From assembly GCA_015065325.1 (NCBI GenBank), contig SVQO01000008.1, forward strand, positions 7,840 to 71,839: 64,000 bases of DNA. The letters are read 5' to 3'. The DNA comes from Oscillospiraceae bacterium (GTDB taxonomy: Bacteria; Bacillota; Clostridia; Oscillospirales; SIG627). Position 1 is the stretch's first letter, and each line of letters starts with the position of its first letter. Made by a program: the position numbers and the translations under genes. The notes under the pieces were generated by a model that worked only from the letters and a program-made list of their open reading frames with translations, was not told the DNA's origin and ran no database searches. This document shows positions 5,066 through 37,988 of the stretch, piece by piece.

Positions 5066-5332
5066 TTCGTTTTCTCCTGTAAACCCGCTTCTGTGCGGGG
5101 AATTTGACCCGTACATTTTATCACTTGCGCGGCATTCTGTCAAGAAATCGGGACACCGTCGGGCACGTTTTTTTCACGGAAATTTTGTAAAAGAATAAGC
5201 ACCCAAGCCGAAAAATAATCTCGGTTGGGTGCTTTTGTTATGCATCCGTATATAATTCATCCTCCCGCCATTTGAGAGGATTTTCGAAAATGTAACTGCA
5301 TACCTTTACGTATTCCTTTTCATCCCGAATGA

Positions 5333-11910: not shown

Positions 11911-11926
11911 ATTTAAAAAAGCAAAA

Positions 11927-11954
11927 AATGCTATGGTTTCCATAGCATTTTTTC
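11927..11954 (+). terminator. Intrinsic terminator after paralog 1
   Basis: AATGCTATGG-TTT-CCATAGCATT followed by TTTTT. A near-identical copy lies after paralog 2. Confidence 0.75.
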
Positions 11955-11983
11955 TTGTATTTCGGAAAAAAGCGTGTTATACT
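11955..11983 (+). promoter_or_regulatory. Sigma-A-like promoter for paralog 2
   Basis: TTGTAT-N17-TATACT with TG at -15/-14 (TGtTATACT). Confidence 0.5.
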
Positions 11984-12013
11984 GATGATACCGAAAAGGA
12001 AAGGAAATTTGCT

Positions 12014-13498: not shown

Positions 13499-13515
13499 AT
13501 TTAAAAAAGCAAAAA

Positions 13516-13544
13516 AATGCTATGGATTTTCCATAGCATTTTTC
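13516..13544 (+). terminator. Intrinsic terminator after paralog 2
   Basis: AATGCTATGG-ATTTT-CCATAGCATT followed by TTTT. Confidence 0.75.
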
Positions 13545-13573
13545 TTGTGTTTTGGGAAAAACCGTGTTATACT
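13545..13573 (+). promoter_or_regulatory. Sigma-A-like promoter for paralog 3
   Basis: TTGTGT-N17-TATACT (TGtTATACT), homologous to 11955-11983. Confidence 0.5.
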
Positions 13574-13603
13574 AACGGTACTGAAAACGAAAGGAAAACT
13601 GCT

Positions 13604-21205: not shown

Positions 21206-22180
21206 TTATATCACCTTCAGGACGACCTTGCCTACGTTTTCACAGCGCTGCAGGATCCCGTGGGCTTCCTCTGCCTGTTCCATAGGCAGAACCTTATAAA
21301 TGGAGGGACGGATGGCACCGCTTTCGATCTTCGGCCATACCTTTTCCACAAGCTCTGCCAGAAGGGCTGCCTTGAATGCGGGGGTACGGTTGCGCAGCAT
21401 AGAGCCTACCAGATGCAGACCCTTGGTCAAAAGGGGGCGGAGCTGAACGGTGGTTTCGATTCCCGCAAGGGTGGAGATCACGACCCAATAACCGCCGCGT
21501 GCCATATAGGGCAGGCTCTTGCCCAGGGTCTCACCGGAAAGGCAGTCCATGGAAACGGCAACGGGAGTTCCGTTTTCCTCCTCCTGCTTCAAGACCTCCT
21601 CCACTGCTTCCTTGGCGGAATTGATAATGAGGTCTGCCCCCAAAGGCCTGATCTTTTCGGCGATCTCATCGGATAGGACCGAGGTGATGACCCGTGCACC
21701 GAATGCCTTTGCCATAGGGATTGCCACGGATGCCAGACCGCTGGCACCTGCGGGGATGAAAGCGGTCTTCCCCGCTTCCAGATGACCCTCGATAAATAAA
21801 TTCAGATAAGAGGTGGCGTATGCCTCGGGGAGCGCGGAGGCCTCCTCCATCGTCAGACCCTTGGGTACGGGCATCAGCATATCCTCCTTGACCGCTACGT
21901 ATTCTGCGTAGCCGCCACCGCCCAGCAGAGCGCAGACCTTGTCGCCCGCCTGCCATTTGCTGACCCGTTCGCCGATTTCAACGATCTCTCCCGCGATCTC
22001 TAGACCCATCCATTCGGGACAGCCGGGAGGAGAGGGGTATTTTCCCTCTCTTTGCAGAAGGTCGGCGCGGTTCAGTGCGGCGGCGTGGATCCTGACGATC
22101 ACGTCCTCCTCCCCCATTTTCGGGTAGGGAACCTCACTCCAAACGAGCTTTTTATTTTCATCGATCAGCATTGCTTTCAT
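21206..22180 (-). CDS. NAD(P)H:quinone oxidoreductase-like MDR (zeta-crystallin family)
   Basis: 'VRIHAAALNRADLLQREGKYP', 'GLEIAGEIVEIG' and 'AGASGLASVAI'. Confidence 0.75.
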   Translation of the reverse strand: MKAMLIDENKKLVWSEVPYPKMGEEDVIVRIHAAALNRADLLQREGKYPSPPGCPEWMGLEIAGEIVEIGERVSKWQAGDKVCALLGGGGYAEYVAVKEDMLMPVPKGLTMEEASALPEAYATSYLNLFIEGHLEAGKTAFIPAGASGLASVAIPMAKAFGARVITSVLSDEIAEKIRPLGADLIINSAKEAVEEVLKQEEENGTPVAVSMDCLSGETLGKSLPYMARGGYWVVISTLAGIETTVQLRPLLTKGLHLVGSMLRNRTPAFKAALLAELVEKVWPKIESGAIRPSIYKVLPMEQAEEAHGILQRCENVGKVVLKVI

Positions 22181-23214
22181 TTTGCTTCCTCCTGCTTTTT
22201 GGCAAAGTATTCGTCCATTCGCTCGTTGACCCTTGCACGGATCTTATCCACACGAAGATTGTCAAGAGAGAGTTTTGCAAGCTCCATCTTCATTGCGTCG
22301 TAAAAGGGCATCAGCTCCTCCTGCTTCATACCCGTAATGGCGAGAATTTTGGAATTGTCGGTGATGCGGTCGAAGAGTCTGGCGTATTCCAGCTGCCACC
22401 GCACGAAGGGAGAGATCGCGTTCCGATCCTTGGACATGATCTGCAGATACTCCTCCTGATCCACCCACTCGTATTTCAGACCGATCAGATCCCGATAGAT
22501 CTCGGCGAGCTCACCCCATGTATGGTATTCTGCGGTGGAAGCGATGAATTTCTCTCCCAGCGCCTCCTTCTTTCCCGCAAGGCGGGCGATCATCACGCCT
22601 ACGTCTCCCGCCCAGGACATGGTGGCGGGCTTGTCCTTTGCTTGAATTGGAATCACCACCGGCTTTCCTTGAAGGGCACGGTAAACGAAGGTGCCCGCCT
22701 CCAGCGTTACAAGCTGTGCTCTGCCGGTGGAAAAGGTGGTGGCGGGGAGGATAATGGTCCAGTTTTTCTTTCCCGATTTGGTGAGAAGATCCTCCTCTGC
22801 CGCCTTGAAAAGGGAATATTCCTTTTCCACGTATTGTAAATACTCCTTGTTTTTGGAAACGTCGATGAGGCGGGGGGAGGATTCCCGAACAGGCACCTCC
22901 TCATTGGCGTACACCCGACAGCTGGAAAGGAACATATACTGATCCGTATTTTCCAAAAATAGGGGGGCGCGTACCCGAAATTGAGGCAGAGTATAGCTCA
23001 TAAAGTCCAGGATCACGTCAAAGTGCGTTTTCGTGATCTTTTCCGTCAGCCACGCATCGTCCATGGCGTTGGCAATGCTTGCCGTCAGGTGTTCGTGGGT
23101 AATTGCGGGCTCGTCCAGTGCGACTACGTCCACGGAAAAACCCAGGCGTAAAAGCTCGGGAACCGCATATCTGCCCATAGCACCCGTGCCGCCCAAAACC
23201 AAAATTTTTTTCAT
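22177..23214 (-). CDS. NAD-dependent epimerase/dehydratase-like SDR (NmrA-like)
   Basis: 'MKKILVLGGTGAMGRY' Rossmann motif. Its stop overlaps the next ATG (ATGA at 22177-22180). Confidence 0.65.
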   Translation of the reverse strand: MKKILVLGGTGAMGRYAVPELLRLGFSVDVVALDEPAITHEHLTASIANAMDDAWLTEKITKTHFDVILDFMSYTLPQFRVRAPLFLENTDQYMFLSSCRVYANEEVPVRESSPRLIDVSKNKEYLQYVEKEYSLFKAAEEDLLTKSGKKNWTIILPATTFSTGRAQLVTLEAGTFVYRALQGKPVVIPIQAKDKPATMSWAGDVGVMIARLAGKKEALGEKFIASTAEYHTWGELAEIYRDLIGLKYEWVDQEEYLQIMSKDRNAISPFVRWQLEYARLFDRITDNSKILAITGMKQEELMPFYDAMKMELAKLSLDNLRVDKIRARVNERMDEYFAKKQEEAK

Positions 23215-23229
23215 AGGGAAAGCTCCTTT

Positions 23230-24243
23230 TCAGTCAATATTTTTGCCATTGAAGCCAACCCCTCCTACGATCTCGTCAAGGACCTTTTGCACCAAAAAGT
23301 CGTGCTCGTAGGTAAAGGGGTTTTGCTTTTCGCCCAAAATGTAGGCGTGGAAATCCTGCATCATCTCGTCGTATCTTCCTCCCGCCGTATGATCCTCGAA
23401 GGGGAGGGTGACCTTGCGGTCCTCGTAGGTTTTGTCTGCAATTTCAAGGTCCGACCAGGTCATGGTAATAGGCCGCTCCAAGGGACAGATATTTGCCGTT
23501 CCAAGGCTTCCTCCCACCATAAACTGCCGTCTGCCGAAGCCGTTGACCTCCACGGAGGAAACGAAAACGCGGGCAAGAGCCTTATCGAATTCCAGAACGG
23601 CGAGATTGTTGTCCTCCAGATCCACTCCGTCCAGTCTCGTGCGGGAGACGAAGGAGCTGATCTTTTTCGGCTCACCCAAGAGATATACGATCAGATCCAC
23701 CAGATGGCTTCCGAAAATATACATACCGCCGCCGCGGAAGTTGGTCAGCCATTTTCGCGTATCCGTGGGATGCAAGGTGCTCATTTCCGCGTGAATGGAA
23801 TGAATTTCTCCGAGTTCACCCTTTTTGATCCTTTCAAAGCATTCCAGCACGGCGGGGTTGTAGCGGTACATATAGCCCAGCTGGACCACCAGATTCTTTT
23901 CCTTTGCAGTGTCGAGAAGCGCCTTGTATTCCTCCAAGGTTCCGCTTGCGGGCTTATCCATGTGGATATGCTTGCCCGCATCCACGCACATTTTGGCGTA
24001 TTTGGTCAGATCCCATACGTCGCTTTCCACCAAAACCGCGTCGGCGCCATCGATGACCTCCTTTACGCTCAGGCGTGGGAGACCCTCGTAGCCCTTCCGA
24101 TCTCCTCTTTTTTCGATCCAGCGCCGGTTTTCCTCGGCGTAGCCGATGACCTCGAACAGTTCGGGAAACTTCCTTGCTGCCTTCATTTTCGATTCGCCGT
24201 GATTGTGTCCGATGCCGATCTGTCCGATCTTGATTTTTTTCAT
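23230..24243 (-). CDS. Gfo/Idh/MocA-family oxidoreductase
   Basis: The N-terminus 'KIGQIGIGHNHG' and 'HIHMDKPAS' are typical of the family. Confidence 0.75.
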   Translation of the reverse strand: MKKIKIGQIGIGHNHGESKMKAARKFPELFEVIGYAEENRRWIEKRGDRKGYEGLPRLSVKEVIDGADAVLVESDVWDLTKYAKMCVDAGKHIHMDKPASGTLEEYKALLDTAKEKNLVVQLGYMYRYNPAVLECFERIKKGELGEIHSIHAEMSTLHPTDTRKWLTNFRGGGMYIFGSHLVDLIVYLLGEPKKISSFVSRTRLDGVDLEDNNLAVLEFDKALARVFVSSVEVNGFGRRQFMVGGSLGTANICPLERPITMTWSDLEIADKTYEDRKVTLPFEDHTAGGRYDEMMQDFHAYILGEKQNPFTYEHDFLVQKVLDEIVGGVGFNGKNID

Positions 24244-24409
24244 TCCGATCCACTCCCATCCAAGACGGCTGCAAGCTCGCTCTTATAATTTGATTATAAA
24301 GCTTTCCCCATATTCGTAAATGGAGATTGTGATAGTTTTGTCGATTTTGATACAAAATTTCTTGCAAAAATTAAATTTTTGTGCTAAAATCAAGGAGAGA
24401 GGTGATCTT

Positions 24410-25180
24410 GTGTTTGTCGATTTTACGCCTGTTCAGGTGGTTTCCGTCACCCGAAAGCTGAAATCTTCCGTGGGTGTTACGGTGCGAAACCGTCGGCGAA
24501 AGTATTGGGGGATCGCTTATAAAAAAGAAGGCGAGACCTACTATTATCAGAACGGAAAGCAATTTCTTTCCGACAAAAATCACGTGTTGCTTTTGCCCAA
24601 GGACGGAAATTACGCCTGGGAATGCAAAAAGGCGGGGGAGTGCATCCTCGTCGATTTTGAGGCGACGGGTGCCCGTGAGGAGATCCAAAGCATTTTTATC
24701 GGCGACGGAGGAGAGCTTTTGACCGCTTTTTCCAAAATGGAGCGCTGTATGAGCCCCGATAATCCTGCGGGAGAGCTGGAGGCAATGCAACAGCTGTACG
24801 GGATCTTGGTGATCCTGACGAAGGCGGAAAATAAAAAGTACGCTCCCAAGGACAAGCAACGCCGATTGGAGCCCGCTATGGACGCGATTTTGGCGCATTA
24901 CTCCGAACCCGACATCACCAACGAAAGCCTTGCCCGCCTTTGCGGGATGAGCGTGGTGTATTTTCGCAAGTGCTTTGAGTCGGTGTACGGGGTCTCGCCC
25001 ATTCGTTATCTGCACCATTTGCGGATGGATAAGGCGAAGGGAATGCTTCTGAGCGACTACGATTCCATTACCCAGATCGCCCAAAGCGTGGGCTACGGAA
25101 GTATTTATCACTTTTCCAAAATGTTTCGTGCCTACACCGGCGTAAGCCCCTCCGAATATGCAAAATCCTCCCGATCGTGA
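24410..25180 (+). CDS. AraC-family transcriptional regulator (AraC-1)
   Basis: A GTG start follows AAGGAGAGAGG. The C-terminal double HTH reads 'LARLCGMSVVYFRKCFESVYGVSPIRYLHHLRMDKAKGMLL...IAQSVGYGSIYHFSKMFRAYTGVSPSEY'. Confidence 0.8.
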   Translation: MFVDFTPVQVVSVTRKLKSSVGVTVRNRRRKYWGIAYKKEGETYYYQNGKQFLSDKNHVLLLPKDGNYAWECKKAGECILVDFEATGAREEIQSIFIGDGGELLTAFSKMERCMSPDNPAGELEAMQQLYGILVILTKAENKKYAPKDKQRRLEPAMDAILAHYSEPDITNESLARLCGMSVVYFRKCFESVYGVSPIRYLHHLRMDKAKGMLLSDYDSITQIAQSVGYGSIYHFSKMFRAYTGVSPSEYAKSSRS

Positions 25181-25411: not shown

Positions 25412-26776
25412 TCATTCAATGCTCATGGTACCGTCAGCAAGATCCTTTGCTACAAACGGGATAAAGTAAAACGGTATCGTGAGCAATTTTTGTTCGGGAT
25501 TGTAACCGTAATTGTTTTTGGAAACCTTGATAGCATATTCAAATTTGTTGTGATTTGAAAACTTTTCCAGAGAATGAAGTGTTCCGCGACCTTTCTTGAC
25601 GTCCATCGGGTAAAGCTTGTTGTCTGACTCAATGATGAATTCAAGCTCAGATGATGCTTTTCCGCGCCAATAAAAGAGCTTGTGTCCTTTAGCGACCATC
25701 TCATTTGCCACAAAATTTTCAAAGAAAATACCTGATAAGGTGTTTTCTCTTTCGCCGGATATGAACGATGCCGCGTTAATTCCGCTTTGGTAAGAAAACA
25801 TACCGATATCACCAAGGAACAGACGAAAATTACTTTCATTGTCCGGCATAAGCGGCGTTGTTACGTGCTCCTTTAATTGGAAAGACTGATTGACGACATG
25901 CGCCATCATAAGCCACTGAATAGAAGTTGCAAAATCTCTTGTTTTGCTCTTTTCCTCAATTAGTCCCGGAGAGAAGTTTTTGGATTCCTTGTTTAGCTCC
26001 CGGTAAATATTTTGGAACAAGATTCTAGAACGTAAAACGGCTTCTGGGCTTGCTTGATACAACTCCATATCTGCAAGGTAATTGTCATATAAAACCTTGA
26101 GAATTTCTCTTGCTTCAAGGATATTGTTGCCGTCAATATAGGCTTCTACAGCTTCCGGCATTCCTCCTATGAGAAGATACTTATATACTTGTTCCATTGC
26201 CAATTCGTGGATCTTGCCATCCAACGGTTTTTTGCTGTCATAGGCTTTTTTTATGGCGCTGTAGAGCATCTTGTTGCTATTCATCAAAAACTCGTCTAGG
26301 GTCATGGGATAAACGGTTATTTGGTTGATCTTGCCTACAGGAAAGAGAAATTTACCGTTATCTTTAGAACCTCGCTTGTGAAGCTCTCTTTGAAGTTTGA
26401 TGCGCACCATTGAGCCGGTTGCAATCACGGGAATGTTTCTGAAATCCTGACAGAAGTATTTGAGCGAGGAAATAATATTGGGACACTCCTGTACTTCATC
26501 GAAGATCAGAAGGGTTTTTTCGTCAATCTGTTTTCCCTTGCGTAGGGAAATATATTCGATGATTTTCTCTGCATTTGCTGTTTCGGAACAGAAATTTCGG
26601 ATTTCATCTTCTTTTTTGCAATCCACATAGACGTAGTTATTTGCGTAATAGCGTTTGGCAAAGAGCTCTTGAATAAGATAGGTTTTACCAACCTGCCTTG
26701 CGCCCCAAATGATCAAAGGCTTTTTGCGTTCGTTGTTATTCCATTCTACTAATTTTTGCAATGCAATTCGTTCCAT
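25412..26776 (-). CDS. AAA+ ATPase with C-terminal DUF4143-like region (AAA_14 family)
   Basis: Walker A 'IIWGARQVGKTYL' and Walker B-like 'LLIFDEVQ'. Start at MERIAL after GGAGG. A spot count of one 60-nt line gives about 43% GC. Confidence 0.7.
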   Translation of the reverse strand: MERIALQKLVEWNNNERKKPLIIWGARQVGKTYLIQELFAKRYYANNYVYVDCKKEDEIRNFCSETANAEKIIEYISLRKGKQIDEKTLLIFDEVQECPNIISSLKYFCQDFRNIPVIATGSMVRIKLQRELHKRGSKDNGKFLFPVGKINQITVYPMTLDEFLMNSNKMLYSAIKKAYDSKKPLDGKIHELAMEQVYKYLLIGGMPEAVEAYIDGNNILEAREILKVLYDNYLADMELYQASPEAVLRSRILFQNIYRELNKESKNFSPGLIEEKSKTRDFATSIQWLMMAHVVNQSFQLKEHVTTPLMPDNESNFRLFLGDIGMFSYQSGINAASFISGERENTLSGIFFENFVANEMVAKGHKLFYWRGKASSELEFIIESDNKLYPMDVKKGRGTLHSLEKFSNHNKFEYAIKVSKNNYGYNPEQKLLTIPFYFIPFVAKDLADGTMSIE

Positions 26777-26805
26777 AAATGAACCTCCAAGCAACTTGTA
26801 TATAT

Positions 26806-26985: not shown

Positions 26986-27777
26986 TCAGGAGAAAAGCGA
27001 TTGCACTCGGTTGATCTCTTCCTCGGTGGGGATTTGACGGGGCAGGGTGTTTTCCATTCCCAGTGCCTTGTACTTGGAGCCTGCCAGATCGTGATAGGGG
27101 AGGACCTTTACCTTTTCGATACAAGTAAGAGGACGGAGAAATTCTGCCAGTTTTTCCATCTGGTCGTCGTTGTGCCCGGGTACGTAGGGAATGCGGATCT
27201 CTACCTTTGCCCCCACGGAATTTAAGTAAAGAAGGTTTTCCAGAATTTGCTCGTTGCTTTGCCCCGTGCAGCGGATATGCACCTTTTCGTCAAAGGCTTT
27301 CAGATCGTATAGGAACAGGTCGGTATAGGGCAAGACCTTCGTCAAGGTTTCCCGCGGCACGAAGCCGCAGGTATCTACGGCGGTATGGATCCCCTCCTCC
27401 TTCAGCCGCTTTAAAAGCTCGGCGGCAAAGGGTGCCTGAGAAAGACATTCTCCCCCCGAAAGGGTCACACCGCCTCCGTTTTCGTAAAAGGGGCGATCCT
27501 CCAGCAAAAGGGGCATCAGCTCCTCGACGGTCATTTCCTTTCCGTAGAGGATGCGGGCTTCCCCGAGACAGTCGCGGGGGTGAAAGTCCTTGCTTTGACA
27601 GGCGCCGCAGCCGATACATTTGTTTTCGAAAAAGGCGGTCTGCTCCTCAAAGGAGATGCCCTCGGGATTGTGACACCAGATACATTTTAAGGGGCACCCC
27701 TTGAAAAAGACCGTGGTGCGGATGCCGGGGCCGTCGTGGACGGCAAAGCGCTTCAGGTCGGTAATTTTTGCTTTCAT
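26986..27777 (-). CDS. Glycyl-radical enzyme activating enzyme (radical SAM)
   Basis: 'FAVHDGPGIRTTVFFKGCPLKCIWCHNPE' (CxxxCxxC) plus a ferredoxin-like 'CIGCGACQ'. The ATG at 27777 overlaps the GRE stop (ATGA). Confidence 0.85.
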   Translation of the reverse strand: MKAKITDLKRFAVHDGPGIRTTVFFKGCPLKCIWCHNPEGISFEEQTAFFENKCIGCGACQSKDFHPRDCLGEARILYGKEMTVEELMPLLLEDRPFYENGGGVTLSGGECLSQAPFAAELLKRLKEEGIHTAVDTCGFVPRETLTKVLPYTDLFLYDLKAFDEKVHIRCTGQSNEQILENLLYLNSVGAKVEIRIPYVPGHNDDQMEKLAEFLRPLTCIEKVKVLPYHDLAGSKYKALGMENTLPRQIPTEEEINRVQSLFS

Positions 27778-30008
27778 CGGGCGATATTCTCCGCTCTCAG
27801 AATGTAGGCGTCCTGCTCCGCCTTTGACATATTGTTCCAAAGGGTGTTCCAGCCGCAGACGCGCACCTGCAGATTGCGGTACTTCTCCGGATGCTCCTGT
27901 GCGTCCCGCAGGGTTTCGGAACGGAAAACGTTGAACTGGATGGATTGTCCGCCGCCCTTTAAATAGGTGGTCAAAAGATTGTTCCAGACCGCAAAGCCTT
28001 CCTCCCCCGAAAGGGTACTGGGATGGAGCATTATGTCTAGGCAGAAGGACTCGTGGTAATTGGAGGGACAAAGCTTCAGAGCCGAGGAGATCAGCGCAGT
28101 GACGCCTTGTTTATCCATTCCCGCCACGGGGGAAGCGTTTTTGGAAAGCTCCTCTCCGCTTTTTCTTCCGTCGGGGAGGGCACCGGTCAAAGCGCCGTGT
28201 CGGATGAAGCCGCGTGCCGAATGGAGGATGGCTTTATACACACCGCCCTTTTCGTTGGGCACGTTGTTTACCTTTTGGGCGAAAAAGTCTGCCATTGCCG
28301 CCGCATAGGTGTCGGCAAGAGGGTCGCCGTTGCCGTATTTGTGGGGAGATTTTTTGATCTTTGCCCGCAAAAGCTCGCTTCCCTCCCAGTTGTTTTTCAA
28401 CACTTGGGCAAGCTCGGTCAGGGTCAGTTCCTTTTGATCGTAAACGAATTCCTTTACCGCAAGGATGCTGTCCACTGCACTGGCAAAGGAGCAGTTCAGC
28501 ATTCCGTTATTGCAGAATTTTACACCGCCGCCGTAGCCGTCCTTACCTTTTTTCAAGGCGCTTTCCACGGTTGCGGAGTACATGGTGGAGGGATTGACGA
28601 AGGCAAGGTATTTTTCCGCGTCGTTGGTGATACGGATCCCGATCTCCACAAGGTTTTCCCACTGCTTGAGAAAGGCAAAATAAAAATCCTCGAAGGTGAC
28701 AAGGCTTTCGAGCTCGCCCGTTTGCACGCCGATCTGCTTGTTTAACGCAGTGTCAAAGCCGTTGGAGAATACGTATTCCACGGCTTTTGCGGCGTTGATA
28801 TAGCCGGAGGTGGAGCATGCCTCGTTGCCGCGGACGCCCGTTTCGTAGCAACCGCGGATATCGAAATTCAGCGCTTCCTCGTAGGTGGCGCCGTATCCCA
28901 TCACCGCCTTGATCATTCCCGGCTCACAGCAGAATACAAGGCTTGCGTTTTTGCGCCGCACCATATCGAAGGCTTTTCTTAAAATGGATTCGGGCGTGTT
29001 TTCGTTGATCTTTAATTGGATCTTGGGGTTGTAGATCTCAAGGCCGTCGTAAACCTCCAGGATCAGGTGAGAAAGCGCGTTATATTTGCTGCTGCCGTCG
29101 GAATTGGTTCCGCCCAAATAAAAGGGCTGACCCCAATAGTTGCCGATGGCGGACCACTGCATCAAAAAGTAGGAGAGAAAATGTCCCAGCTCCTCCTCGG
29201 TGTATCTGCCGCTTTCCAGATCCGTCTTATAAAAGGGATAAAGCGTGCCGTCCAGACCATTGCCGAGAGAACGGACCTGATAACGGTCGATGCACTCCGA
29301 GATGATAAAGTAGAGATAGATCAGCTGGAGTGCCTCGTAGAAGGTGGTGGGAGGACCGTGGCGCAGATGCTCCAGACAGACGGTGATCTCCTTTGCTTTT
29401 TCAAAGCTTTGCTTCTCGGCAAGGGCGATCATTCGGTCGAGCAGATGCAGGATCGCCGTATATTGAAGCTCGATCCCCTCGAAAAAGGCGTCTGCTTCTT
29501 CGGTTAGGGTTCCTGCCGTCCGATGCATTTTGCGATATTTGCGGGCGCGCTCAATGATCCCCGTAAAGCCAAGCTTCATCAGGGAGTCCCAATCGGGAAC
29601 CACATGGTCGTAATCCACCCAGTACATCATAGCGCCGCAGGCGTTGACGTCCTCGGAAAGCCGTACCAGCTCGGGGTCGCGAAGCGCAAGGGATTCCTCC
29701 GCCCATTTGCTGAAGGTGACGCATTTTGCAAGACGGTCCAGGGAATACAGACCCACGAAATAATCGTGCTCGTTGAGATAGATCCGCTGGTGCTGCAAAA
29801 GGTACTCGATTGCCCGCGCCTTTGCCACGGGATGGGGAAGGTTATCCAGGGGAAGGGCTTTCAGTCCCTCCAGAAGTTCCTCGTCGTCAAGTCCGCTTTC
29901 CTCCAAATAGCCGATGCCGTGGTACGCCATTCGCTTGAAGGGATTGAATTCTTTTTCGGGATCGTGGTATTTCCGTTCCACGAAATAACGGTCCGAAGAA
30001 TGGATCAT
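27774..30008 (-). CDS. Glycyl-radical enzyme, PFL2/dehydratase-lyase clade, substrate unknown (744 aa)
   Basis: Gly-radical motif 'RVCGWN' (Gly codon 27852-27854). Cys loop 'RGCYETG' (Cys codon 28848-28850), 332 residues upstream. The ATG at 30008 follows AAAGGAG. The longer ORF-track N-terminus overlaps the divergent AraC gene. Confidence 0.8.
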   Translation of the reverse strand: MIHSSDRYFVERKYHDPEKEFNPFKRMAYHGIGYLEESGLDDEELLEGLKALPLDNLPHPVAKARAIEYLLQHQRIYLNEHDYFVGLYSLDRLAKCVTFSKWAEESLALRDPELVRLSEDVNACGAMMYWVDYDHVVPDWDSLMKLGFTGIIERARKYRKMHRTAGTLTEEADAFFEGIELQYTAILHLLDRMIALAEKQSFEKAKEITVCLEHLRHGPPTTFYEALQLIYLYFIISECIDRYQVRSLGNGLDGTLYPFYKTDLESGRYTEEELGHFLSYFLMQWSAIGNYWGQPFYLGGTNSDGSSKYNALSHLILEVYDGLEIYNPKIQLKINENTPESILRKAFDMVRRKNASLVFCCEPGMIKAVMGYGATYEEALNFDIRGCYETGVRGNEACSTSGYINAAKAVEYVFSNGFDTALNKQIGVQTGELESLVTFEDFYFAFLKQWENLVEIGIRITNDAEKYLAFVNPSTMYSATVESALKKGKDGYGGGVKFCNNGMLNCSFASAVDSILAVKEFVYDQKELTLTELAQVLKNNWEGSELLRAKIKKSPHKYGNGDPLADTYAAAMADFFAQKVNNVPNEKGGVYKAILHSARGFIRHGALTGALPDGRKSGEELSKNASPVAGMDKQGVTALISSALKLCPSNYHESFCLDIMLHPSTLSGEEGFAVWNNLLTTYLKGGGQSIQFNVFRSETLRDAQEHPEKYRNLQVRVCGWNTLWNNMSKAEQDAYILRAENIAR

Positions 30009-30122
30009 CGCATTCACTCCTTTTCCCCGATTATAGGACGAAAAATAATAAATTTGAATAGATAAAAGAAAAATACTTGACTGTTTCGAAACAAAACCGT
30101 AAAATATCCTTGAGGTGATGAA

Positions 30123-30893
30123 ATGCAGGAATTTATGAAACGGGATCTTACCGTTGAAAAAATCGAGCTTGCCTGCCTTGTGGAGGCGGGGAAGGCTGCC
30201 CCCGTTCACAAAAACAGAAAAAGCCACGGTCTTGCTTTGTTCCCCGGAGGAGAGAGGATCATTTCCTTCGAGGGGAAAAAGCTTCTCGTGGGCAAGGATA
30301 CCGTGGTATATTTCCCAAAGGGCTCCGATTATACGGTGCGCGATCGGATCCCCTTCGAATGCTACGCCATCAATTTTCAGCTGGCGGGGGACGAGGTCTT
30401 CGAGCCTTTTGCCGTTGGGGTAAAAAACGTGAACGCGGTCTTGCAAAGCTTTCGGGAAAGCCAGAGGATCTGGAGAAAAAAGAGCGTCGGCTATTCGTCG
30501 AAGATCAAAGCCGAGCTGTACAGCATCATTTATCAGCTGCAAAGCGAAAACCGGATCCCCTACGCCAAGACCTCCGTCATCGAGCCTGCTGTCCGCTATA
30601 TTCATTCCCATTACGACAAGGAGGAGATCCGTGTTTCCGACCTTGCCGAGCTTTGCGGGATCAGTCAGGTATATTTGCGCTCTCTGTTTCAAAAGCGCTT
30701 TGCCACCACTCCCGTAGGGTATATCGAGCACCTGAGAATGAGTCGCGCCGAGGAGCTCCTGAGCTCCCAGATGTACGCGGTCCGCGACGTATGCTTTCTC
30801 TCGGGCTTCCGTGATGAAAGCTACTTCTCCCGCCGTTTCAAAAAGCAGTTTGGAGTCCCTCCCGGGGACTATGCAAAATCCTCCCGAGCTTGA
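30123..30893 (+). CDS. AraC-family transcriptional regulator (AraC-2, cupin + HTH)
   Basis: 'LAELCGISQVYLRSLFQKRFATTPVGYIEHLRMSRAEELL...FLSGFRDESYFSRRFKKQFGVPPGDY'. It is divergent from the GRE. Confidence 0.8.
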   Translation: MQEFMKRDLTVEKIELACLVEAGKAAPVHKNRKSHGLALFPGGERIISFEGKKLLVGKDTVVYFPKGSDYTVRDRIPFECYAINFQLAGDEVFEPFAVGVKNVNAVLQSFRESQRIWRKKSVGYSSKIKAELYSIIYQLQSENRIPYAKTSVIEPAVRYIHSHYDKEEIRVSDLAELCGISQVYLRSLFQKRFATTPVGYIEHLRMSRAEELLSSQMYAVRDVCFLSGFRDESYFSRRFKKQFGVPPGDYAKSSRA

Positions 30894-30908
30894 TCGGGAG
30901 GATTTTTT
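30870..30908 (+). repeat. 39-bp direct repeat, copy B (last codons of AraC-2 + terminator)
   Basis: TATGCAAAATCCTCCCGAgctTGATCGGGAGGATTTTTT. See 25157-25195. Confidence 0.85.
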
Positions 30909-31309: not shown

Positions 31310-32230
31310 TTAGCTGTGCTCCAAAACGCGCCTTGCCGTGTATTCGTCGGTGATCAGCGTGTCGATCATTTTTGTTCGCAGCGCTCCCGCGATTGCTTCT
31401 GCCTTTTCTTTTCCACAGGCGATGGCAACGGATTCCCTTGCGTTCTTGATATTGTCCACGGAGGCGCACAATGTGTTGCTATACAGATTGACGAACGTTC
31501 CGTTTTGATCGAAAAAGTGTGTGGCTATGTCACCGATGGCTTGGCAGTGGATATCGCTGTACCCAAATGTTTTGCCGAAGATATCCAGGATTTCCGTGTT
31601 TCCTATTCCCAAAATGGCAAGATCGGCGGTATTCCACATATCCTGCATTCTCTTGTAATAGCCAAGCTGCTTCAGTAACACAGAATCTTCATCGCTGTCA
31701 GCAAGATAGGGAAACCATGCGCATTTGGGCGTGGCATCCAGCTTATCTGCCATCTTCCGGGCTAACTCGTTAGAGGAAAAATAAGAATGTTCAGTATCGG
31801 TAGCGCCAAATAACGGGAATACGGTGTTACCGGCGGTAGAGAGCTTGGGAAGGTTTTGAATCAATTCTTGAATCGTCCGTCCCCAGGATAGGGCAATCTT
31901 TTGGTTGCCCTTTTGGACAATTGGCAGGATATATTCAACCGCCGCCTTAACCGTCATAAGCCGATGCACCGACTCATTTCTGCCGCTGACACTGCATACA
32001 ACACAGTCCCGAATGCCAAAGATAGCACAAATCTGCTCTTCTAGCTCTTTGCAGTCCTTTGGCGGATCGTGTATGATGATTTCTACTATTTTTTCTTCTA
32101 TGGCATCGCTTAAAAGCTTGGAAACCGTTTGCCGGGACAGATGCAAAGTTTCTGCGATTTCCTGTTGGGTCAGGTTTTCCTTATAGTAAAGGGTCGCGAC
32201 TTCGGACATCAGTATTTTTTCTGTATTCAT
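31310..32230 (-). CDS. SorC/DeoR-type sugar-binding transcriptional regulator
   Basis: 'VATLYYKENLTQQEIAETLHLSRQTVSKLLSDA' HTH plus a CggR-like sugar-phosphate-binding domain. Start at MNTEKIL. Confidence 0.75.
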   Translation of the reverse strand: MNTEKILMSEVATLYYKENLTQQEIAETLHLSRQTVSKLLSDAIEEKIVEIIIHDPPKDCKELEEQICAIFGIRDCVVCSVSGRNESVHRLMTVKAAVEYILPIVQKGNQKIALSWGRTIQELIQNLPKLSTAGNTVFPLFGATDTEHSYFSSNELARKMADKLDATPKCAWFPYLADSDEDSVLLKQLGYYKRMQDMWNTADLAILGIGNTEILDIFGKTFGYSDIHCQAIGDIATHFFDQNGTFVNLYSNTLCASVDNIKNARESVAIACGKEKAEAIAGALRTKMIDTLITDEYTARRVLEHS

Positions 32231-32362
32231 AGACTTGCTCCTAAGTGTTGGTGACTTAATTCTACAATGAAATGCGTAGTTTGTCAATTATTTAACATTT
32301 GTAATTGACAAATGTTAAATAAAAGGGTATAATGTTTCTGCAAAAACAAAGGAGGGAACAAA

Positions 32363-33232
32363 ATGCTCGTTTCAATGAAAGAAATGCTGGAAGATGCCCG
32401 TAAGAACCATTACGCCCTTCCTGCATTTGATGTTAGCAATTACGATATGATGAAAGCTGTTTTGGAAGCCTGCGAGGAGGAGCGGTCTCCGGCACTGCTT
32501 ATGGCACTGGGTGTGGATCTGCAGGGCAGAGATATGAACCTGCTGGCATCCATGATCCGCAGCGCATCGGACCATTTCAATATTCCTGTTTGCCTGCATC
32601 TGGATCACGCAACAGATTTTACCATGATCGCAAAGGCTATTGATGCAGGCTTTAGTTCCGTTATGTACGACGGCTCCGTCCTGGATTTTGCCAGCAACGC
32701 GAAAAATACCGCTCAGGTGGTAAAGCTCGCACACGCCCACGGCATCACTGTGGAAGCAGAGCTTGGCCATGTGGGTAACGGCAGTGTGGGGTCAATCAGT
32801 GAAACCGGCACGGATACCGATCCCGGCGAGAGCCTGACTGTCCCGGAGGAGGTCGCAAAATTTGTGGAGATCACCGATGTGGATGCCCTTGCGGTAGCTA
32901 TTGGTACCGCCCACGGTGTATATCAGAAGACACCCGAGCTGCGAATTGACCGGCTGGACGAGATCACAGCTGTTTGTCAAAGGCCCTTAGTGTTGCATGG
33001 CGGTAGCGGCACACCTGATGAGCAAATGCAAGAGGCCATCCGACACGGCATCACTAAGATCAACATCTATTCCGATGTGGTAGCCGCTATGAACAAGGGT
33101 CTGAAAGAAAAGCTCAACGCTATGGATAACCCCGCCACCTGGCCTTTTCTGGTGTTTGCCGATGCCCGGGAGGAGATGAAGGAAGTAGTCCGGAACAAGC
33201 TGCGTATCTTTGGCAGCGCCGACCGTCTGTAA
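32363..33232 (+). CDS. Class II ketose/fructose-bisphosphate aldolase family
   Basis: 'YALPAFDVSNYDMMKAVLEACEEERSPALL', 'HLDHA', 'EAELGHVG' and 'LVLHGGSG'. Confidence 0.8.
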   Translation: MLVSMKEMLEDARKNHYALPAFDVSNYDMMKAVLEACEEERSPALLMALGVDLQGRDMNLLASMIRSASDHFNIPVCLHLDHATDFTMIAKAIDAGFSSVMYDGSVLDFASNAKNTAQVVKLAHAHGITVEAELGHVGNGSVGSISETGTDTDPGESLTVPEEVAKFVEITDVDALAVAIGTAHGVYQKTPELRIDRLDEITAVCQRPLVLHGGSGTPDEQMQEAIRHGITKINIYSDVVAAMNKGLKEKLNAMDNPATWPFLVFADAREEMKEVVRNKLRIFGSADRL

Positions 33233-33244
33233 GGAGGAAACAGG

Positions 33245-34486
33245 ATGAAAACAAAAGCAGTTCGCCTTTATGGTGAAAATGATTTGCGTTTGGAAGAATT
33301 TGAATTGCCGGAACTGAAAAACGGCGAGATTCTCATCAAGATCATTTCCGACAGCGTTTGTATGTCTACCTACAAGACTGTGAAACAGGGCGCAAAACAT
33401 TTGCGTGTACCGGACAATGTAGCAGAAAAGCCTGTGATCATCGGCCACGAATTCTGCGCGGAAGTTGTGGAAGTTACGGATAAATGGAAAGATCAATTTC
33501 ACGTGGGAGATAAGGTGGCTATGCCTCCTGTGCTGTCCTATCTTGGCGGTATGCAGACCGTTGGTTATTCCTTCGGCGAGATCGGCGGCGTTTCTACATA
33601 TTCTATTGTTTATGAGCACATCATTGAAAACGGATATCTGATGAAGCTGGATAGTGACTGTTTCTTCAAGGGATCGCTGATCGAGCCTGCTTCCTGCGTA
33701 CTCCGGGGTTATAAGGGGAGTATGCATTTAGATACCGACGGCGTTCCTTATACAAATCTCAGATCCGGCGGCAAGGTGGCCATTCTGGCAGGCTGCGGTC
33801 CTATGGGCCTTGTAGCCATCGACCTGGCTATCCACGGCACCGTGAAGCCCTCCGTTGTGGTGGTCACCGATCTGGACGAGAATCGTCTTGCCAGAGCGGA
33901 GGAAATCTTCTGTCCTGAAAAGGCTGCACAGGACGGCATCAACCTGATCTTCAGCAATTCCACCCATGCCGATGAGCTGATTGCGCTGGCGGGCGGAGAA
34001 TTTGATGATGTGTTTGTGTATGCCCCTGTTCCGGCGGTTGTGGAACTGGGTGATGAAATTCTGGGCTTTGACGGCTGCCTAAATTTCTTTGCAGGTCCGC
34101 TGGATCAGAGGTTCAGCGCAAAGTTCAATTTCTACAATGTCCACTACAAGCAGCATCATGTGTCCGGAACCAGCGGCAGCACCATAGAGGATATGCAGGA
34201 TATTGTACGCCTGATTAGCCAGCAGAAGATTGATCCTGCGGTAATGATTACCCATATCGGCGGTATCGATGCAGCGATTGATACTACCATACATCTGCCC
34301 CAGATCCCCGGCGGCAAAAAGCTGATCTATACCCATATCAACTTGCCCCTGACTGCCATTGCTGATTTTGCTGCTTTGGGAGAAACAGATGACCGGTTCA
34401 AGGCCCTCGATACCCTTGTAAAGGAAGGTAACGGCTTGTGGAATGCAAGAGCCGAAAAATATTTCCTGGAGAATTTTGGAGGTTAA
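33245..34486 (+). CDS. Zinc-binding dehydrogenase, sorbose-1-phosphate-reductase-like MDR (413 aa)
   Basis: 'ISDSVCMSTYK', 'IGHEFCAEVVEV' and 'ILAGCGPMG'. Confidence 0.6.
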   Translation: MKTKAVRLYGENDLRLEEFELPELKNGEILIKIISDSVCMSTYKTVKQGAKHLRVPDNVAEKPVIIGHEFCAEVVEVTDKWKDQFHVGDKVAMPPVLSYLGGMQTVGYSFGEIGGVSTYSIVYEHIIENGYLMKLDSDCFFKGSLIEPASCVLRGYKGSMHLDTDGVPYTNLRSGGKVAILAGCGPMGLVAIDLAIHGTVKPSVVVVTDLDENRLARAEEIFCPEKAAQDGINLIFSNSTHADELIALAGGEFDDVFVYAPVPAVVELGDEILGFDGCLNFFAGPLDQRFSAKFNFYNVHYKQHHVSGTSGSTIEDMQDIVRLISQQKIDPAVMITHIGGIDAAIDTTIHLPQIPGGKKLIYTHINLPLTAIADFAALGETDDRFKALDTLVKEGNGLWNARAEKYFLENFGG

Positions 34487-34488
34487 CT

Positions 34489-35568
34489 ATGAATTTACCG
34501 AATCATATTTTCAGCGGAAATTGGAAAGAGGGACATGTGCAGGGAATTGCCGTGGATACGCAGCGGGGTTTTGTATATTACTCGTTCACCACGATCCTTT
34601 TGAAGACTGATTTGCAGGGAAATCCTCTTGCCAGCGTTAAGAATATCATTGGTCATCTTGGCTGCATTGCCTTTGACAAGGAAGCAAACCGAGTGTATGG
34701 CTCTCTGGAATTGAAACATGATATTATCGGCAGAGGAATTATGGAGCGGACCGGCATAGAATTGGCGGAGGAAGATGCCTTCTATTTAGTGTCTTTTGAC
34801 TTGAGCAAGCTGGATCGCATGGAGATGGATGCAGAAAAGGACGGCATTATGCAGGCGGTCTATGTACGGGATGTGGTCCGGGATTACAGTGAAAAGGACG
34901 ACCTGACCGGACTGCCGGGACGCTATGGCTGTGGCGGTATGGACGGCGTTTCCATTGGACCGATCTTTGGTGCAGATGCGGATAGTCCCAGAAAACTGTT
35001 CCTTGCGGAAGGAATTAAAAAAGAGCTTGACCGCAGCGACAACGATCATCAGGTGTTGCTGCAGTACGATCTTTCTATCTTTGATACCTATGGTCAGCCC
35101 CTGACTCAGCTGCAACCCCATCATAACGGACCAGAAAGCTGCGAAGAGAGATATTTCTTCTACACAGGCAATACCAATTGGGGAATTCAAAACTTAGAAT
35201 ATGATCCCTATACTCGCTACTGGTTTACAGCCGTTTATCCGGGCGCAAAGCCGGAATTTGAAAACTTCCGTATGTTTGCCATTGATGGTGCAATCCCTGC
35301 AAAGAAAGCACCCCTAGAAGGCAGACCGGGAGAAACGGGATTGCTTCTGACTTCTGCCAAAATCGGAGAGGGACAGAAAGACGGCAGGATCTACGGCTCT
35401 CACCTGAAATGGGGTTCTACAGGAATTGCATCCCTTGGAAACGGAGAATTCTACATCTCCCATCACGGAATGATCAAGGAGCAAGCGCTGCATTTCTCCA
35501 ATCTGAAGCTGTATTACTTTGATCCTGAACACCCTGAGTGGTTCCGCAAAAAATATGAAGTTTTGTGA
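34489..35568 (+). CDS. Hypothetical protein (possible beta-propeller), 359 aa
   Basis: ATG at 34489 after GGAGG, 2 nt past the previous stop. I recognise no family. Confidence 0.5.
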   Translation: MNLPNHIFSGNWKEGHVQGIAVDTQRGFVYYSFTTILLKTDLQGNPLASVKNIIGHLGCIAFDKEANRVYGSLELKHDIIGRGIMERTGIELAEEDAFYLVSFDLSKLDRMEMDAEKDGIMQAVYVRDVVRDYSEKDDLTGLPGRYGCGGMDGVSIGPIFGADADSPRKLFLAEGIKKELDRSDNDHQVLLQYDLSIFDTYGQPLTQLQPHHNGPESCEERYFFYTGNTNWGIQNLEYDPYTRYWFTAVYPGAKPEFENFRMFAIDGAIPAKKAPLEGRPGETGLLLTSAKIGEGQKDGRIYGSHLKWGSTGIASLGNGEFYISHHGMIKEQALHFSNLKLYYFDPEHPEWFRKKYEVL

Positions 35569-35789: not shown

Positions 35790-37820
35790 TCAGAATTGAA
35801 CGAAAAATTCATCCGTTACATCTATACCGTTTCGTAAAATCACGCAGTTTACCAATTTCTCGTTTTTGATCTCGGCTTCAACCGTGATTCCGCCTTTTGC
35901 CGCTAATTTAAAGGAGACGTCGGTGGTGTGGGGGAATGCGGGCAATAGATGAATGGTATTACCCTCTGCTTGCAAAAGCATATCGTTTACGGCAGAGATG
36001 AAAATCCCTGCGGCGGTTGAAAACCAAGGGCGGTTCCGTCGGACCGGCTCATTGATTTCAAACAATTCGCCAAAAACTCCGGCAGATGGATAGACCTGCT
36101 TCAGGGCTTTGTAAGCGTTTTCTGCCATTTTTGCTCTGGCATATCCTAATGCTTTCCAACAGGCATACCACGGTGAAATGTTGTTCCCCACCGGATACAT
36201 ATTCCCGTAGGCGCGCCCATTTATTTCGAAATCTTCCCAGGCGCAGAGCATTTTCTCATCAGAATCATTTAAAAGGTCAAAGGGAAATTTGCCGGCGAAA
36301 ACTGCAATGCTTTTTTGCTTGCAGTTCAAGTGCGGAACATACATTCCGTTTTCTGCCGGCAAATTTTCATAAAGTTTTTTAGAGATATAGGCACACTCGG
36401 CTGAATATTTTTCGTCTGTTTCCAATATGTCGGCGGCTTTTTTGCAACATTGAAGGAGCTTAATGGCGCCGCAGGCAGTCATAAACGGATTTTGTATGGA
36501 GGAGCCAAGCCGTTCGAGATCGGTGCATTTTCCGATATAATATTGATCGCCGTCTTTATACAGCATATGCTTTGTGATAAATTTTGAACAAGCACGAATC
36601 ATGGGATAACAGTCTCTCAAAAAATCAACGTCTTTTGAATATTCATAGTATTCGAATGCGCCAATACCCACGAGAGGGATATGAAAAATATGATCCAACC
36701 AGTGCCCTTCCGCTGCCAGTTCAATTCGATCAATTTCTCCTGTTTGCCAATGAAAACGAGCCATATCTTCTGTCTCGGTGGTTCGATGGGAATCACTTGC
36801 CCGATGGATCGCCACATCCAAACAAACGTTCTTTCTGTATAGTGGCACTCTTTTGGCAAGCTCCAATCGGTTTGCACTCAATAGACCATAATAAGAGGTA
36901 TATTCATCAAACGCAAAGTAGCGCCCATCCCAACTTCCGTTATTGAACCCTACCGCGATGGATGCTTTCGTGGTGTTGCATTTAACCGAATAAAGCGACG
37001 TTTTATAAATGGAGTTAAGCTTTTCATCTGCGGTTTTTACATATCCAAGCTTGTAGAAGGAATCATAATGATCTGTGCATTCCTTTAGCAAACCCTCAAA
37101 GCCAAGCGCGTCAATGGTTTGTTTGTATTGATGGAGCACCTCTCTAAAATCGGCTTTTTCCATATCATCTTCAAGATAATAGTAAAAGGTTACGGTTTCG
37201 CCCGCAGATGCCGAAAAGGAAATTTGAGCACCGGTGTCGGTGAGATTTACAGAAAAATCTTTATCAACAAAGAAATGAATTTCGCCGGTAAAAACATCCA
37301 TTCCATACATTTTAAAGCCGATGCAACAAATGTTTTCATGCTTCTTCGTATATAAAACTTGCATATACCGGCTGATGCTTTCATTATATCCGCAAAGGGT
37401 TACTTCGTATGCGAATTCCCTTGTGCCGGAGATGTTTTCAAATGTTTTTTGAAGAGCATAGATATTATGAGAGGGGTGAATAAAGCCTTTTGAACGGATG
37501 GTTGCCCCACTTTCATATAAGCACTCGCTTTCAAAAAAGCCATTTTCAACGTTCAGCTCCTGTGTCCATTGCTCGAGGGAGCTTCCCTCGCGGAACGTAA
37601 ATTTTCCAAAGGGAAACAGCCGCGCCCGAACGTCGTTGCACATTGCGCTTCTTCTTCCGTAGTGAACAACGATTCCGTCGAAGGCTCGAACTCCTTTCTT
37701 TTTATAATCATCGAAGGTATAGCCGAGCATTCCTTCTGCATCCGCCGCAAAAGAAATATCGCCGTTGGAAAGCATTGGCGGGAAATAGCAATTTTTGTTT
37801 TCCTCACTATGATAAGTCAT
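35790..37820 (-). CDS. Hypothetical protein, putative (alpha/alpha)6-barrel glycoside hydrolase
   Basis: A large soluble protein paired with a divergent AraC regulator. Its C-terminal half has the helix-rich, W/Y-rich composition of six-hairpin glycosidases. No specific family motif was recognised. Confidence 0.35.
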
Positions 37821-37988
37821 AATATTTACCATCCTTTTCCGAGTTATCTTTTATTTTATGATAAAACGAAACTTTTAAGAAATCAATTGGTTAATTACTC
37901 AAAAGATTATTCAAATTACGCATTTTGATTGACTTATCGAAGAAAACAATATATGCTTTATATAAAGCTGTTTAGGGAGTGAAAAGCT

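Follow-up and report, generated by a model that had tools for sequence, protein, structure and literature searches.

What does a glycyl radical enzyme (GRE) of apparent eliminase type act on when no curated family claims it? The question is raised by a gene in a 64,000-nucleotide stretch of DNA from Oscillospiraceae bacterium (GenBank assembly GCA_015065325.1, contig SVQO01000008.1, positions 7,840 to 71,839 of the forward strand), referred to here as the window, in which a GRE of 744 amino acids (aa) stands beside its predicted activase and a divergently transcribed AraC/XylS-family regulator. A sequence-only reading had described the enzyme as an orphan GRE with an eliminase-type C-x-E loop and no assigned function. 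Comparison with related loci, solved structures, and curated families leads us to propose that it is probably an AraC-induced radical C-O eliminase of a sugar-derived substrate and that regulator, enzyme, and activase make up a cassette that is complete in itself, under AraC control, and built around an oxygen-sensitive radical enzyme, a reading that we hold as a whole with moderate confidence.

Sequence and placement of the enzyme

The GRE is encoded by an open reading frame (ORF) on the minus strand (27774 to 30008; 744 aa plus stop on translation) that matches the Pfam domains PFL-like (PF02901, 3.4e-96) and Gly_radical (PF01228, 1.6e-24), and by this domain content it is a member of the PFL-like GRE superfamily. 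Its Cys loop G-C-Y-E (28842 to 28853, minus strand) lies within FDIRGCYETG, with the Cys387 codon at 28850-28848, and its glycine loop, R716-V-C-G719-W-N721 (27846 to 27863, minus strand), which follows the superfamily pattern R-V-x-G-[FYW], carries the predicted glycyl radical site, Gly719 (codon 27854-27852), which stands within LQVRVCGWNTLW in the translation. Translation confirmed all the coordinates previously given for the ORF and its two loops, as well as the 332 residues that separate Cys387 from Gly719. The spacing is ~330 in glycerol dehydratase (GD) and propanediol dehydratase (PD) as well, and the GRE superfamily in general has its catalytic Cys at the tip of a loop ~330 residues upstream of the glycine loop.

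The enzyme falls below the cut-off of every curated NCBIfam family, and therefore no family name can be transferred to it: it scores 326.8 bits against a cut-off of 678.2 for TIGR01774 (PFL2/glycerol dehydratase), 308 against 1100 for HypD, 225 against 1050 for CutC, and 259 and 254 against 1000 for the sulfopropanediol dehydratase models HpfG and HpsG. Among solved GREs, a single-sequence search with phmmer best matched PFL2 of Archaeoglobus fulgidus (6.7e-76), followed by HypD and GD. A family profile scored HypD at 425 bits, GD at 408, 2F3O at 385, PD at 380, HplG at 374, PflD at 359, CutC at 353, and YbiW at 316, with solved IslA/IseG among the weaker matches (316 and 309); for IslA the NCBIfam comparison reported no model. 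Identity to HypD, GD, PD, and A. fulgidus PFL2 is ~22 to 25%, and at these distances the enzyme does not cluster with any GRE of known substrate. An AlphaFold2 (AF2) model (predicted local distance difference test [pLDDT] 79, predicted template modeling score 0.83) is poor in loops 290-292, 390-397, 493-502, and 624-633. Foldseek matched this model to all GRE classes in the PDB at template modeling (TM) scores of 0.77 to 0.84 and 20 to 25% identity, which confirms the GRE fold, as modeled, and does not discriminate function.

Set beside its solved relatives, the enzyme shares with GD (Clostridium butyricum, 1R8W/1R9D) and PD (Roseburia inulinivorans, 5I2G) the GRE fold (TM ~0.8), the CXE loop, a His on the first barrel strand, and an activase of the same family. 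However, these B12-independent enzymes are only 23 to 24% identical to it and ~45 to 100 residues longer, they have G-C-V-E and R-V-A-G-Y-S where it has G-C-Y-E and R-V-C-G-W-N, and its own cassette is AraC-controlled and lacks microcompartment and aldehyde-handling genes. PFL2 of A. fulgidus (2F3O) likewise has the His and, in RVAGWS, a Trp after the radical Gly, but it is archaeal, ~25% identical, and carries G-C-V-E; it has no assigned substrate and its function is debated (PMC13450708).

The word orphan proved apt for the function and not for the sequence, which belongs to a very large clade with relatives in at least 144 species genomes, nearly all of uncultured gut or rumen Clostridia. 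Relatives were found in 144 stretches of a species-level genome collection, and 80 loci were kept (49 to 80% identity to the GRE), almost all in metagenome-assembled genomes (MAGs) of Acutalibacteraceae, Oscillospiraceae, and Christensenellales, with one in Kiritimatiellia. The protein database adds more than 120 clusters of ~745 aa at 69 to 100% identity, unnamed or called "hypothetical protein," and an identical protein occurs in a rumen-type Ruminococcaceae/Oscillospiraceae MAG at NCBI. Among representatives at 50% identity, at least 150 clusters, almost all 680 to 750 aa long, score 283 to 916 bits, each above the best solved GRE (260 bits), and the list ends abruptly where canonical G-C-V-E/R-V-A-G-Y-S proteins start. 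G-C-Y-E is present in 112 of the ~127 full-length representatives, and R-[VL]-C-G-W-N in ~100 of 127; D-x-x-H (His135) and x-R-[ST] (Arg246) are shared as well. By these motifs the enzyme represents a very large, coherent clade without a characterized member, and G-C-Y-E with R-[VL]-C-G-W-N marks a radiation of short GREs, that is, a clade rather than a substrate.

This distribution bears on the earlier suggestion that the Tyr of the Cys loop and the short length point to an unassigned substrate. The substrate is indeed unassigned, but both traits are common to the whole clade, and with G-C-Y-E in most representatives the loop Tyr, RVCGWN, and short length are therefore not substrate-specific. 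They probably reflect a remodeled interface between the Cys loop and the Cys-Gly-Trp-Asn loop. Variation between subclades falls instead at positions aligned with substrate-contact residues of known GREs, the subclade of the window enzyme (~25 representatives) having Q244-V-R-S, N290-Y-W-G-[QH]-P-x-Y297, and H596-[SC]-A-R599.

Several genomes hold paralogues near the orthologue, in two or three AraC-GRE-activase units per genome (tandem cassettes at L013, L026, L027, L033, L053, L042, and L079). These GREs are all short (680 to 750 aa) and just 22 to 26% identical to each other, with Cys loops that read G-C-N-E, G-C-W-G (without the Glu), A-C-C-T, or S-C-M-G, and by these loops the organisms seem to collect GRE cassettes of different chemistry. 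Of the GREs that a 2026 review brings together (six C-O eliminases, three C-S lyases, three isomerases, and CutC), not one matches the enzyme, and the review stresses that whole GRE clades are still unannotated (PMC13450708). Searches of literature full text, of incomplete coverage and with an unindexed paper possible, returned no already characterized counterpart of the enzyme and nothing relevant for RVCGWN, RLCGWN, GCYE, or GRE together with glycoside hydrolase or esterase.

Predicted active site and reaction

Both the phmmer and the profile alignments place C387-Y388-E389 on the CVE of HypD, GD, PD, and 2f3o, which, with no family cut-off reached, upholds the view of an eliminase-type GRE without an assigned function. 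Among 84 GREs from related loci, C387, R716, and G719 show no substitution; 79 of them have E389, and all 84 have His135 (29604 to 29606, minus strand), part of the clade-wide D-x-x-H motif. His135 aligns with the general-acid His of dehydratases, GD His164 and HypD His160, in both alignments; at this first-strand position it presumably replaces the acidic residue of CutC. By alignment, the enzyme retains the catalytic Cys, Glu, and His of dehydratases that cleave C-O bonds, and the active-site residues looked for after proper alignment (Cys, Glu, His, and Gly) are all present. For the roles of Cys, Glu, and His in GD, PD, and HypD, and for the C-x-E motif as that of eliminases, we follow the GRE review (PMC13450708).

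The residues that contact the substrate in known enzymes are, as far as they can be mapped, replaced. HypD (Clostridioides difficile, 6VXC/6VXE), the top solved match of the profile, has its Tyr450 in common with the enzyme (Tyr403 in both alignments), but of its essential residues Asp278 is matched by Gln244, Ser334 falls in a loop that the enzyme lacks, and Asp339 is matched by Gly or Gln, and its Thr645 and Arg156 correspond to Ala598 and Asp134; the roles of these HypD residues are described in PMC7077986. The pairings of Gln244, Ala598, and Asp134 recur in both alignments, as does that of Trp130 with HypD Phe152. The loop that bears HypD Ser334 and Phe340 and GD Phe333 is shorter in the enzyme and remodeled to N-Y-W-G-Q-P, with an alignment uncertain by one or two residues. 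Tyr297 is aligned by both methods with GD Tyr339, and His596 with GD Tyr640, two residues that we take to be substrate contacts in GD. At the mapped pocket positions the enzyme has Tyr, Trp, Gln, His, Thr, and Ser; none of them is occupied by Arg or Lys, and Asp132 and Asp134 lie close by. Such an aromatic, polar pocket without a basic residue would fit a neutral polyol.

From these assignments a reaction can be proposed. The activase would abstract the pro-S hydrogen of Gly719, and the Gly719 radical would generate a thiyl radical on Cys387, which would in turn abstract a hydrogen atom at a carbinol carbon in the substrate. Glu389 would accept the hydroxyl proton to give a ketyl-type radical, and His135 would protonate the oxygen substituent on the neighboring carbon, whose C-O bond would break, either with loss of water or as part of a ring that opens or a glycosidic linkage that is cleaved, before Cys387 gives the hydrogen atom back. 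We infer that the substrate is a neutral sugar or derivative (a monosaccharide, glycoside, anhydro-sugar, or cyclitol), set free from plant or host glycans that carry acetyl or other ester groups. One variant, speculative and in our judgment unlikely, is hydrogen abstraction at the anomeric carbon with loss of the 2-OH to give a 2-deoxy-aldonolactone. Such a product would account for the lactonases of three folds that recur in related loci and are yet dispensable, as such lactones also hydrolyze spontaneously.

Cassette partners, proposed carbohydrate link, and rival explanations

The predicted partners of the enzyme are encoded on either side of it. The activase ORF (26986 to 27777, minus strand, 263 aa) matches Radical_SAM (3.9e-25) and passes NCBIfam TIGR02494 (292 bits against a cut-off of 174), which assigns its product to the radical S-adenosylmethionine (SAM) enzymes of the GRE-activase family. 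Its CX3CX2C radical-SAM motif (C28, C32, and C35 in CPLKCIWC; 27673 to 27696, minus strand) carries Radical_SAM and Fer4_12 matches. As the sequence-only reading had it, the ORF contains CIWC and CIGCGAC and starts inside the GRE stop, its ATG (27777-27775) overlapping the TGA (27776-27774) in cgATGAaa. The auxiliary insert is reduced to 66 aa (27568 to 27618, minus strand, for its Cys-bearing part), with four Cys, C54-x2-C57-x2-C60-x9-C70, and the eight further Cys expected of a ferredoxin-like insert are not present in this activase. Activases with a ferredoxin-like insert have CX3CX2C plus eight further Cys and two auxiliary clusters, the eight forming two CX2CX2CX3C motifs in most GRE activases (PMC13450708). 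In the nearest subclade (13 loci) the insert is 66 to 67 aa long with the same four Cys (CX2CX2C-x9-C), whereas more distant orthologues have 88 to 90 aa and at least eight Cys.

The regulator ORF (30123 to 30893, plus strand, 256 aa) encodes a C-terminal double helix-turn-helix (HTH_18, 2.5e-19; HTH_AraC, 4.1e-15) and an N-terminal sensor domain without a Pfam match; the domain matches of all three proteins are far above chance. A control region of 114 bp (30009 to 30122) separates it from the GRE start, confirming the divergent arrangement noted previously. Within this region, promoter-like sites stand back-to-back on the minus strand (30058->30030, TTCAAA-17-TATAAT) and the plus strand (30077->30105, TTGACT-17-TAAAAT), both consensus matches only and in a count no higher than in shuffled sequence. 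AGGAG lies 8 nucleotides upstream of the GRE ATG, and a terminator-like hairpin lies at 30875-30906.

When 1006 ORFs from the 80 related loci and the window were called and clustered, AraC and the activase were the only conserved partners of the GRE. A divergent AraC gene lies immediately upstream in 51 of the 64 orthologous loci with enough flank. The activase is downstream in 50 of 67 orthologous loci, directly adjacent in 42 (14 of them with the 4-nucleotide overlap) and after inserted genes in 8. Flanking genes differ between genomes, and the three genes therefore appear to be a portable cassette. Clusters of SpoIVB, HtrA, and quinone-oxidoreductase genes were rejected as functional partners, as they reflect synteny among close relatives. 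Across the 80 related loci, no phosphotransferase system (PTS), kinase, or phosphate-sugar genes are conserved with the cassette, nor are genes for a microcompartment, aldehyde or alcohol dehydrogenase, or pyrroline-5-carboxylate (P5C) reductase.

A sugar-derived substrate is suggested by four lines of evidence: genes inserted into the operon, protein fusions, the neighbors of relatives in a second phylum, and a window rich in carbohydrate-active enzymes (GH78, GH95-like, and GH2 glycoside hydrolases [GHs], a class II aldolase, and SorC). In a minority of loci, genes sit between the GRE and the activase and encode SMP-30/gluconolactonase, EamA transporters, SASA carbohydrate esterase, lactonase-like proteins of the phosphotriesterase (PTE) family, and GDSL or beta-lactamase-fold hydrolases. 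The GRE operon makes up just 118 of the 1006 ORFs yet holds SMP30 in 7 of 7 cases, SASA in 4 of 4, EamA in 8 of 10, PTE in 2 of 3, and GDSL in 2 of 2. Two of the SMP30 fragments adjoin a frameshifted GRE. GH42, GH39, glucuronate isomerase (UxaC), rhamnose isomerase (RhaA), and fucose isomerase (FucI) are also encoded in such operons. The statement that transporter and accessory genes are absent is therefore true of the cassette in the window but not of its relatives, which carry EamA, lactonases, esterases, or fusions.

In seven long representatives the GRE forms the C-terminus of a carbohydrate-active enzyme, the partner being AXE1 acetyl-xylan esterase (two), a SASA esterase, a 3-keto-disaccharide-hydrolase-like protein, a GH2 beta-mannosidase-like protein, a GH78 rhamnosidase, or a 950-aa module of unknown type; in one fusion, P0201, the N-terminal 815 aa have no Pfam match. 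Six of the seven bear the subclade signature of the window GRE, with Q-V-R-[ST], N-Y-W-G-Q-P, and H-[SC]-A-R, and the GH78 fusion is of a sister type. An artefact of a single assembly was rejected, since the SASA, GH2, and unknown-module fusions each occur on 3 to 9 independent contigs. Loci of the Planctomycetes-Verrucomicrobia-Chlamydiae (PVC) group (Kiritimatiellia, Lentisphaeria, Victivallales, and Verrucomicrobia) have next to the GRE AraC (7), BD-FAE feruloyl/acetyl-xylan esterase (3), Abhydrolase_3 (3), dienelactone-hydrolase-like DLH (3), SMP30, GH88, GH94, and KduI. The association with ester or lactone hydrolases and glycosidases thus recurs in two phyla, as operons and as fusions.

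The PVC relatives show further features of their own. A 53%-identical orthologue in Kiritimatiellia (L067:871-12805) has neither AraC nor activase adjacent. After it come large proteins of lectin/glucanase-like and GH123-like type and then a lactonase-type gene, Amidohydro_2, an arrangement that suggests horizontal transfer of the GRE into a glycan-degrading PVC bacterium. N-terminal export signals are found in clade members P0146, P0147, P0151, P0156, P0158, P0159, P0169, P0201, and L081-L092, for example at L089:4299-6767 and L086:7061-9484. Some PVC members have twin-arginine motifs (MKATRRKFLGG.., ..TRRRFLEGL.., ..TRRHFLELI..), and signals of the Sec or lipoprotein type (..GLVGAAVAAAC..) are present in the fusions to carbohydrate enzymes. 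A short activase is still encoded next to several of the signal-bearing GREs.

A number of points weigh against this reading. Around residues 290-297 the profile alignment is offset from that of phmmer by one or two positions, and the AF2 model falls below a pLDDT of 50 at the active-site loops 290-292 and 390-397, so that the pocket assignment rests on sequence alignment. Dehydration, ring opening, and glycosidic cleavage are not separable at the level of sequence. The carbohydrate link is one of guilt by association: accessory genes are present in a minority of orthologous loci, the fusion proteins are relatives of only 36 to 42% identity and not orthologues, and the cassette of the window itself includes no gene for a transporter, an esterase, or product handling. 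The esterases and lactonases (beta-lactamase fold, PTE, SMP30, DLH, and feruloyl esterase) would also fit non-carbohydrate esters or lactones equally well.

This last point leads to a rival explanation that we consider improbable, namely, that the substrate is a non-sugar hydroxylated acid or alcohol set free from plant esters or lactones, such as quinate or shikimate (from quinides or from esters of the chlorogenic-acid type) or a compound of another secondary-metabolite lactone. The partners that recur hydrolyze esters or lactones and differ widely in fold (BD-FAE, dienelactone hydrolase, beta-lactamase fold, PTE, and SMP30), the hosts inhabit herbivore and high-fiber human guts, and AraC-linked pairs of a short-chain dehydrogenase/reductase (SDR) and a DHquinase_I-like protein lie near the cassette in L011, L034, L051, and L061. 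These pairs, however, stand outside the operon and in just 4 of 80 loci, and the domains fused to the GRE are genuinely glycan-active (AXE1, SASA, GH2, GH78, and 3-keto-disaccharide hydrolase), with GH42, GH39, UxaC, RhaA, and FucI in the operons. A carboxylate substrate is also disfavored by Asp134 at the position of HypD Arg156 and by the lack of a basic residue in the mapped pocket. That the enzyme is a divergent glycerol, 1,2-propanediol, or hydroxyproline dehydratase with a known substrate is far less probable still. Although these are its best solved relatives and have Cys, Glu, and His in common with it, the 22 to 25% identity, the scores far under curated cut-offs, and the 150 or more clusters of its own clade that outscore any solved GRE speak against such an assignment, as do Gln for HypD Asp278, Ala for Thr645, the absent Ser334 loop, and His596 in place of GD Tyr640. 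Nor do the related loci share any gene for a microcompartment, an aldehyde or alcohol dehydrogenase, or P5C reductase. On residues and model scores together, glycerol, propanediol, hydroxyproline, choline, and sulfonate were rejected, and none of them is predicted to be the substrate; in C-S lyases, two Arg and a Gln anchor the sulfonate.

An isomerase presents a different kind of alternative, in which the chemistry of the CXE motif would break a C-O or C-N bond within a ring and give an isomer, for example of an anhydro-sugar or a cyclic sugar derivative, as in YbiW, PflD, or HplG, isomerases with a binding site for a phosphate-sugar or hydroxy-D-proline. YbiW and PflD are, to our knowledge, the only characterized GREs that act on sugars, and by analogy a GRE directed at sugars finds its best mechanistic precedent in them. 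Isomerases among the GREs retain the CXE motif as well as the same first steps, and YbiW (1,5-anhydroglucitol-6-P) and PflD (1,5-anhydromannitol-6-P) cleave a C-O bond next to a carbinol radical (PMC13450708). PflD, YbiW, and HplG are matched at levels similar to those of the dehydratases, with a Foldseek TM of ~0.8 for all, and the sugar-linked gene context fits. Nevertheless, we regard this alternative as unlikely, as HypD, GD, and PD score 425 to 380 bits on the profile against 359 for PflD and 316 for YbiW, HplG lacks the His that is invariant among the relatives of the enzyme, and the substrates of YbiW and PflD are phosphorylated, whereas the cassette has no PTS, kinase, or phosphate-sugar genes as conserved companions. 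The alternative overlaps with the sugar-directed eliminase that we favor, the distinction being a chemical one and not one of sequence. Finally, the protein might be a decayed or structural homologue rather than a working radical enzyme. Some clade members carry Sec, lipoprotein, or Tat signals, and we know of no route by which a glycyl radical is made, activated, or kept outside the cytoplasm. This explanation is nonetheless the least credible of all, since dozens of species show no or almost no variation at Gly719, Cys387, Glu389, and His135, and the activase, translationally coupled to the GRE in the window, lies next to it in most relatives, signal-bearing ones among them. A pseudogene was rejected on the same conservation.

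Window neighborhood and meaning for the family

The carbohydrate-active genes of the window lie at 447-2507, 35790-38774, 42602-44320, and 31310-35568. GH78 is an alpha-L-rhamnosidase, the GH95-like protein has its own divergent AraC with an AraC_binding domain, and the SorC-regulated class II aldolase is accompanied by a 413-aa zinc alcohol dehydrogenase (ADH) and a 376-aa ORF without a Pfam match. A second AraC-divergent operon occupies 21206-25180, in which AraC (24320-25180, plus strand) faces genes for a GFO/IDH/MocA oxidoreductase, an NmrA/epimerase-like protein, and a zinc-ADH/quinone-oxidoreductase-like protein (24243->21206, minus strand). The same three-oxidoreductase module stands beside the GRE cassette in the otherwise nonsyntenic L050 and L051, and it may handle the GRE product. 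Between the cassette and this operon is a gene for an AAA_14/DUF4143 ATPase (25412-26794, minus strand) with its own promoter-like site. The AAA_14/DUF4143 pair is also found beside GRE cassettes in 3 of 18 PVC loci, e.g., L081, which may be coincidence or may point to a mobile or defense-type gene that travels with the cassette.

Elsewhere in the window, two tandem ORFs on the minus strand (49232-54130 and 54340-59217) encode proteins of 1632 and 1625 aa with 52% mutual identity, signal peptides, and no Pfam match. Predicted lipoproteins of ~500 aa, also in tandem and without a Pfam match, are encoded at 3575-5143 (minus strand) and 10393-15070 (plus strand); their lipoboxes read ..LAACGSS.. 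and ..SLGSCSSS.., and four copies occur in L001, the locus of the closest relative. The SDR/dehydroquinase-like pairs of four related loci, in which the DHquinase_I-like match is weak (PF01487, 3e-11), lie a few kb from the cassette and hint at cyclitol (quinate/shikimate) metabolism in the same neighborhoods.

GREs let anaerobes run reactions beyond the reach of polar chemistry, and newly assigned members have exposed overlooked gut pathways, from choline to trimethylamine, from isethionate to H2S, and for hydroxyproline and anhydroglucitol. What is new here is a large, coherent clade with its motifs as clade markers, a lead toward esterified carbohydrates, a four-Cys activase insert, and export signals in relatives. 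The cassette of regulator, enzyme, and activase offers a compact entry point into a clade much larger than any characterized GRE family and widespread in uncultured, fiber-degrading Clostridia of human and ruminant guts. The signal-bearing relatives would raise the question of how a GRE could work outside the cytoplasm. If the sugar link holds, the enzyme would add a radical step to anaerobic glycan catabolism and would represent a new class of carbohydrate-active enzymes. A broader and more doubtful proposal, which we offer tentatively, is that a very large, unrecognized class of carbohydrate-active GREs, recognizable by the loops G-C-Y-E and R-x-C-G-W-N, performs radical C-O chemistry directly on sugars or glycosides in concert with esterases, lactonases, and glycosidases, and is exported in PVC bacteria, as Tat or Sec signals and fusions to secreted carbohydrate-active enzymes would suggest. 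Were this true, anomeric dehydration to 2-deoxy-aldonolactones or radical cleavage of glycosidic bonds would be examples of its chemistry, and the class would provide a radical route of glycan breakdown in anoxic guts.

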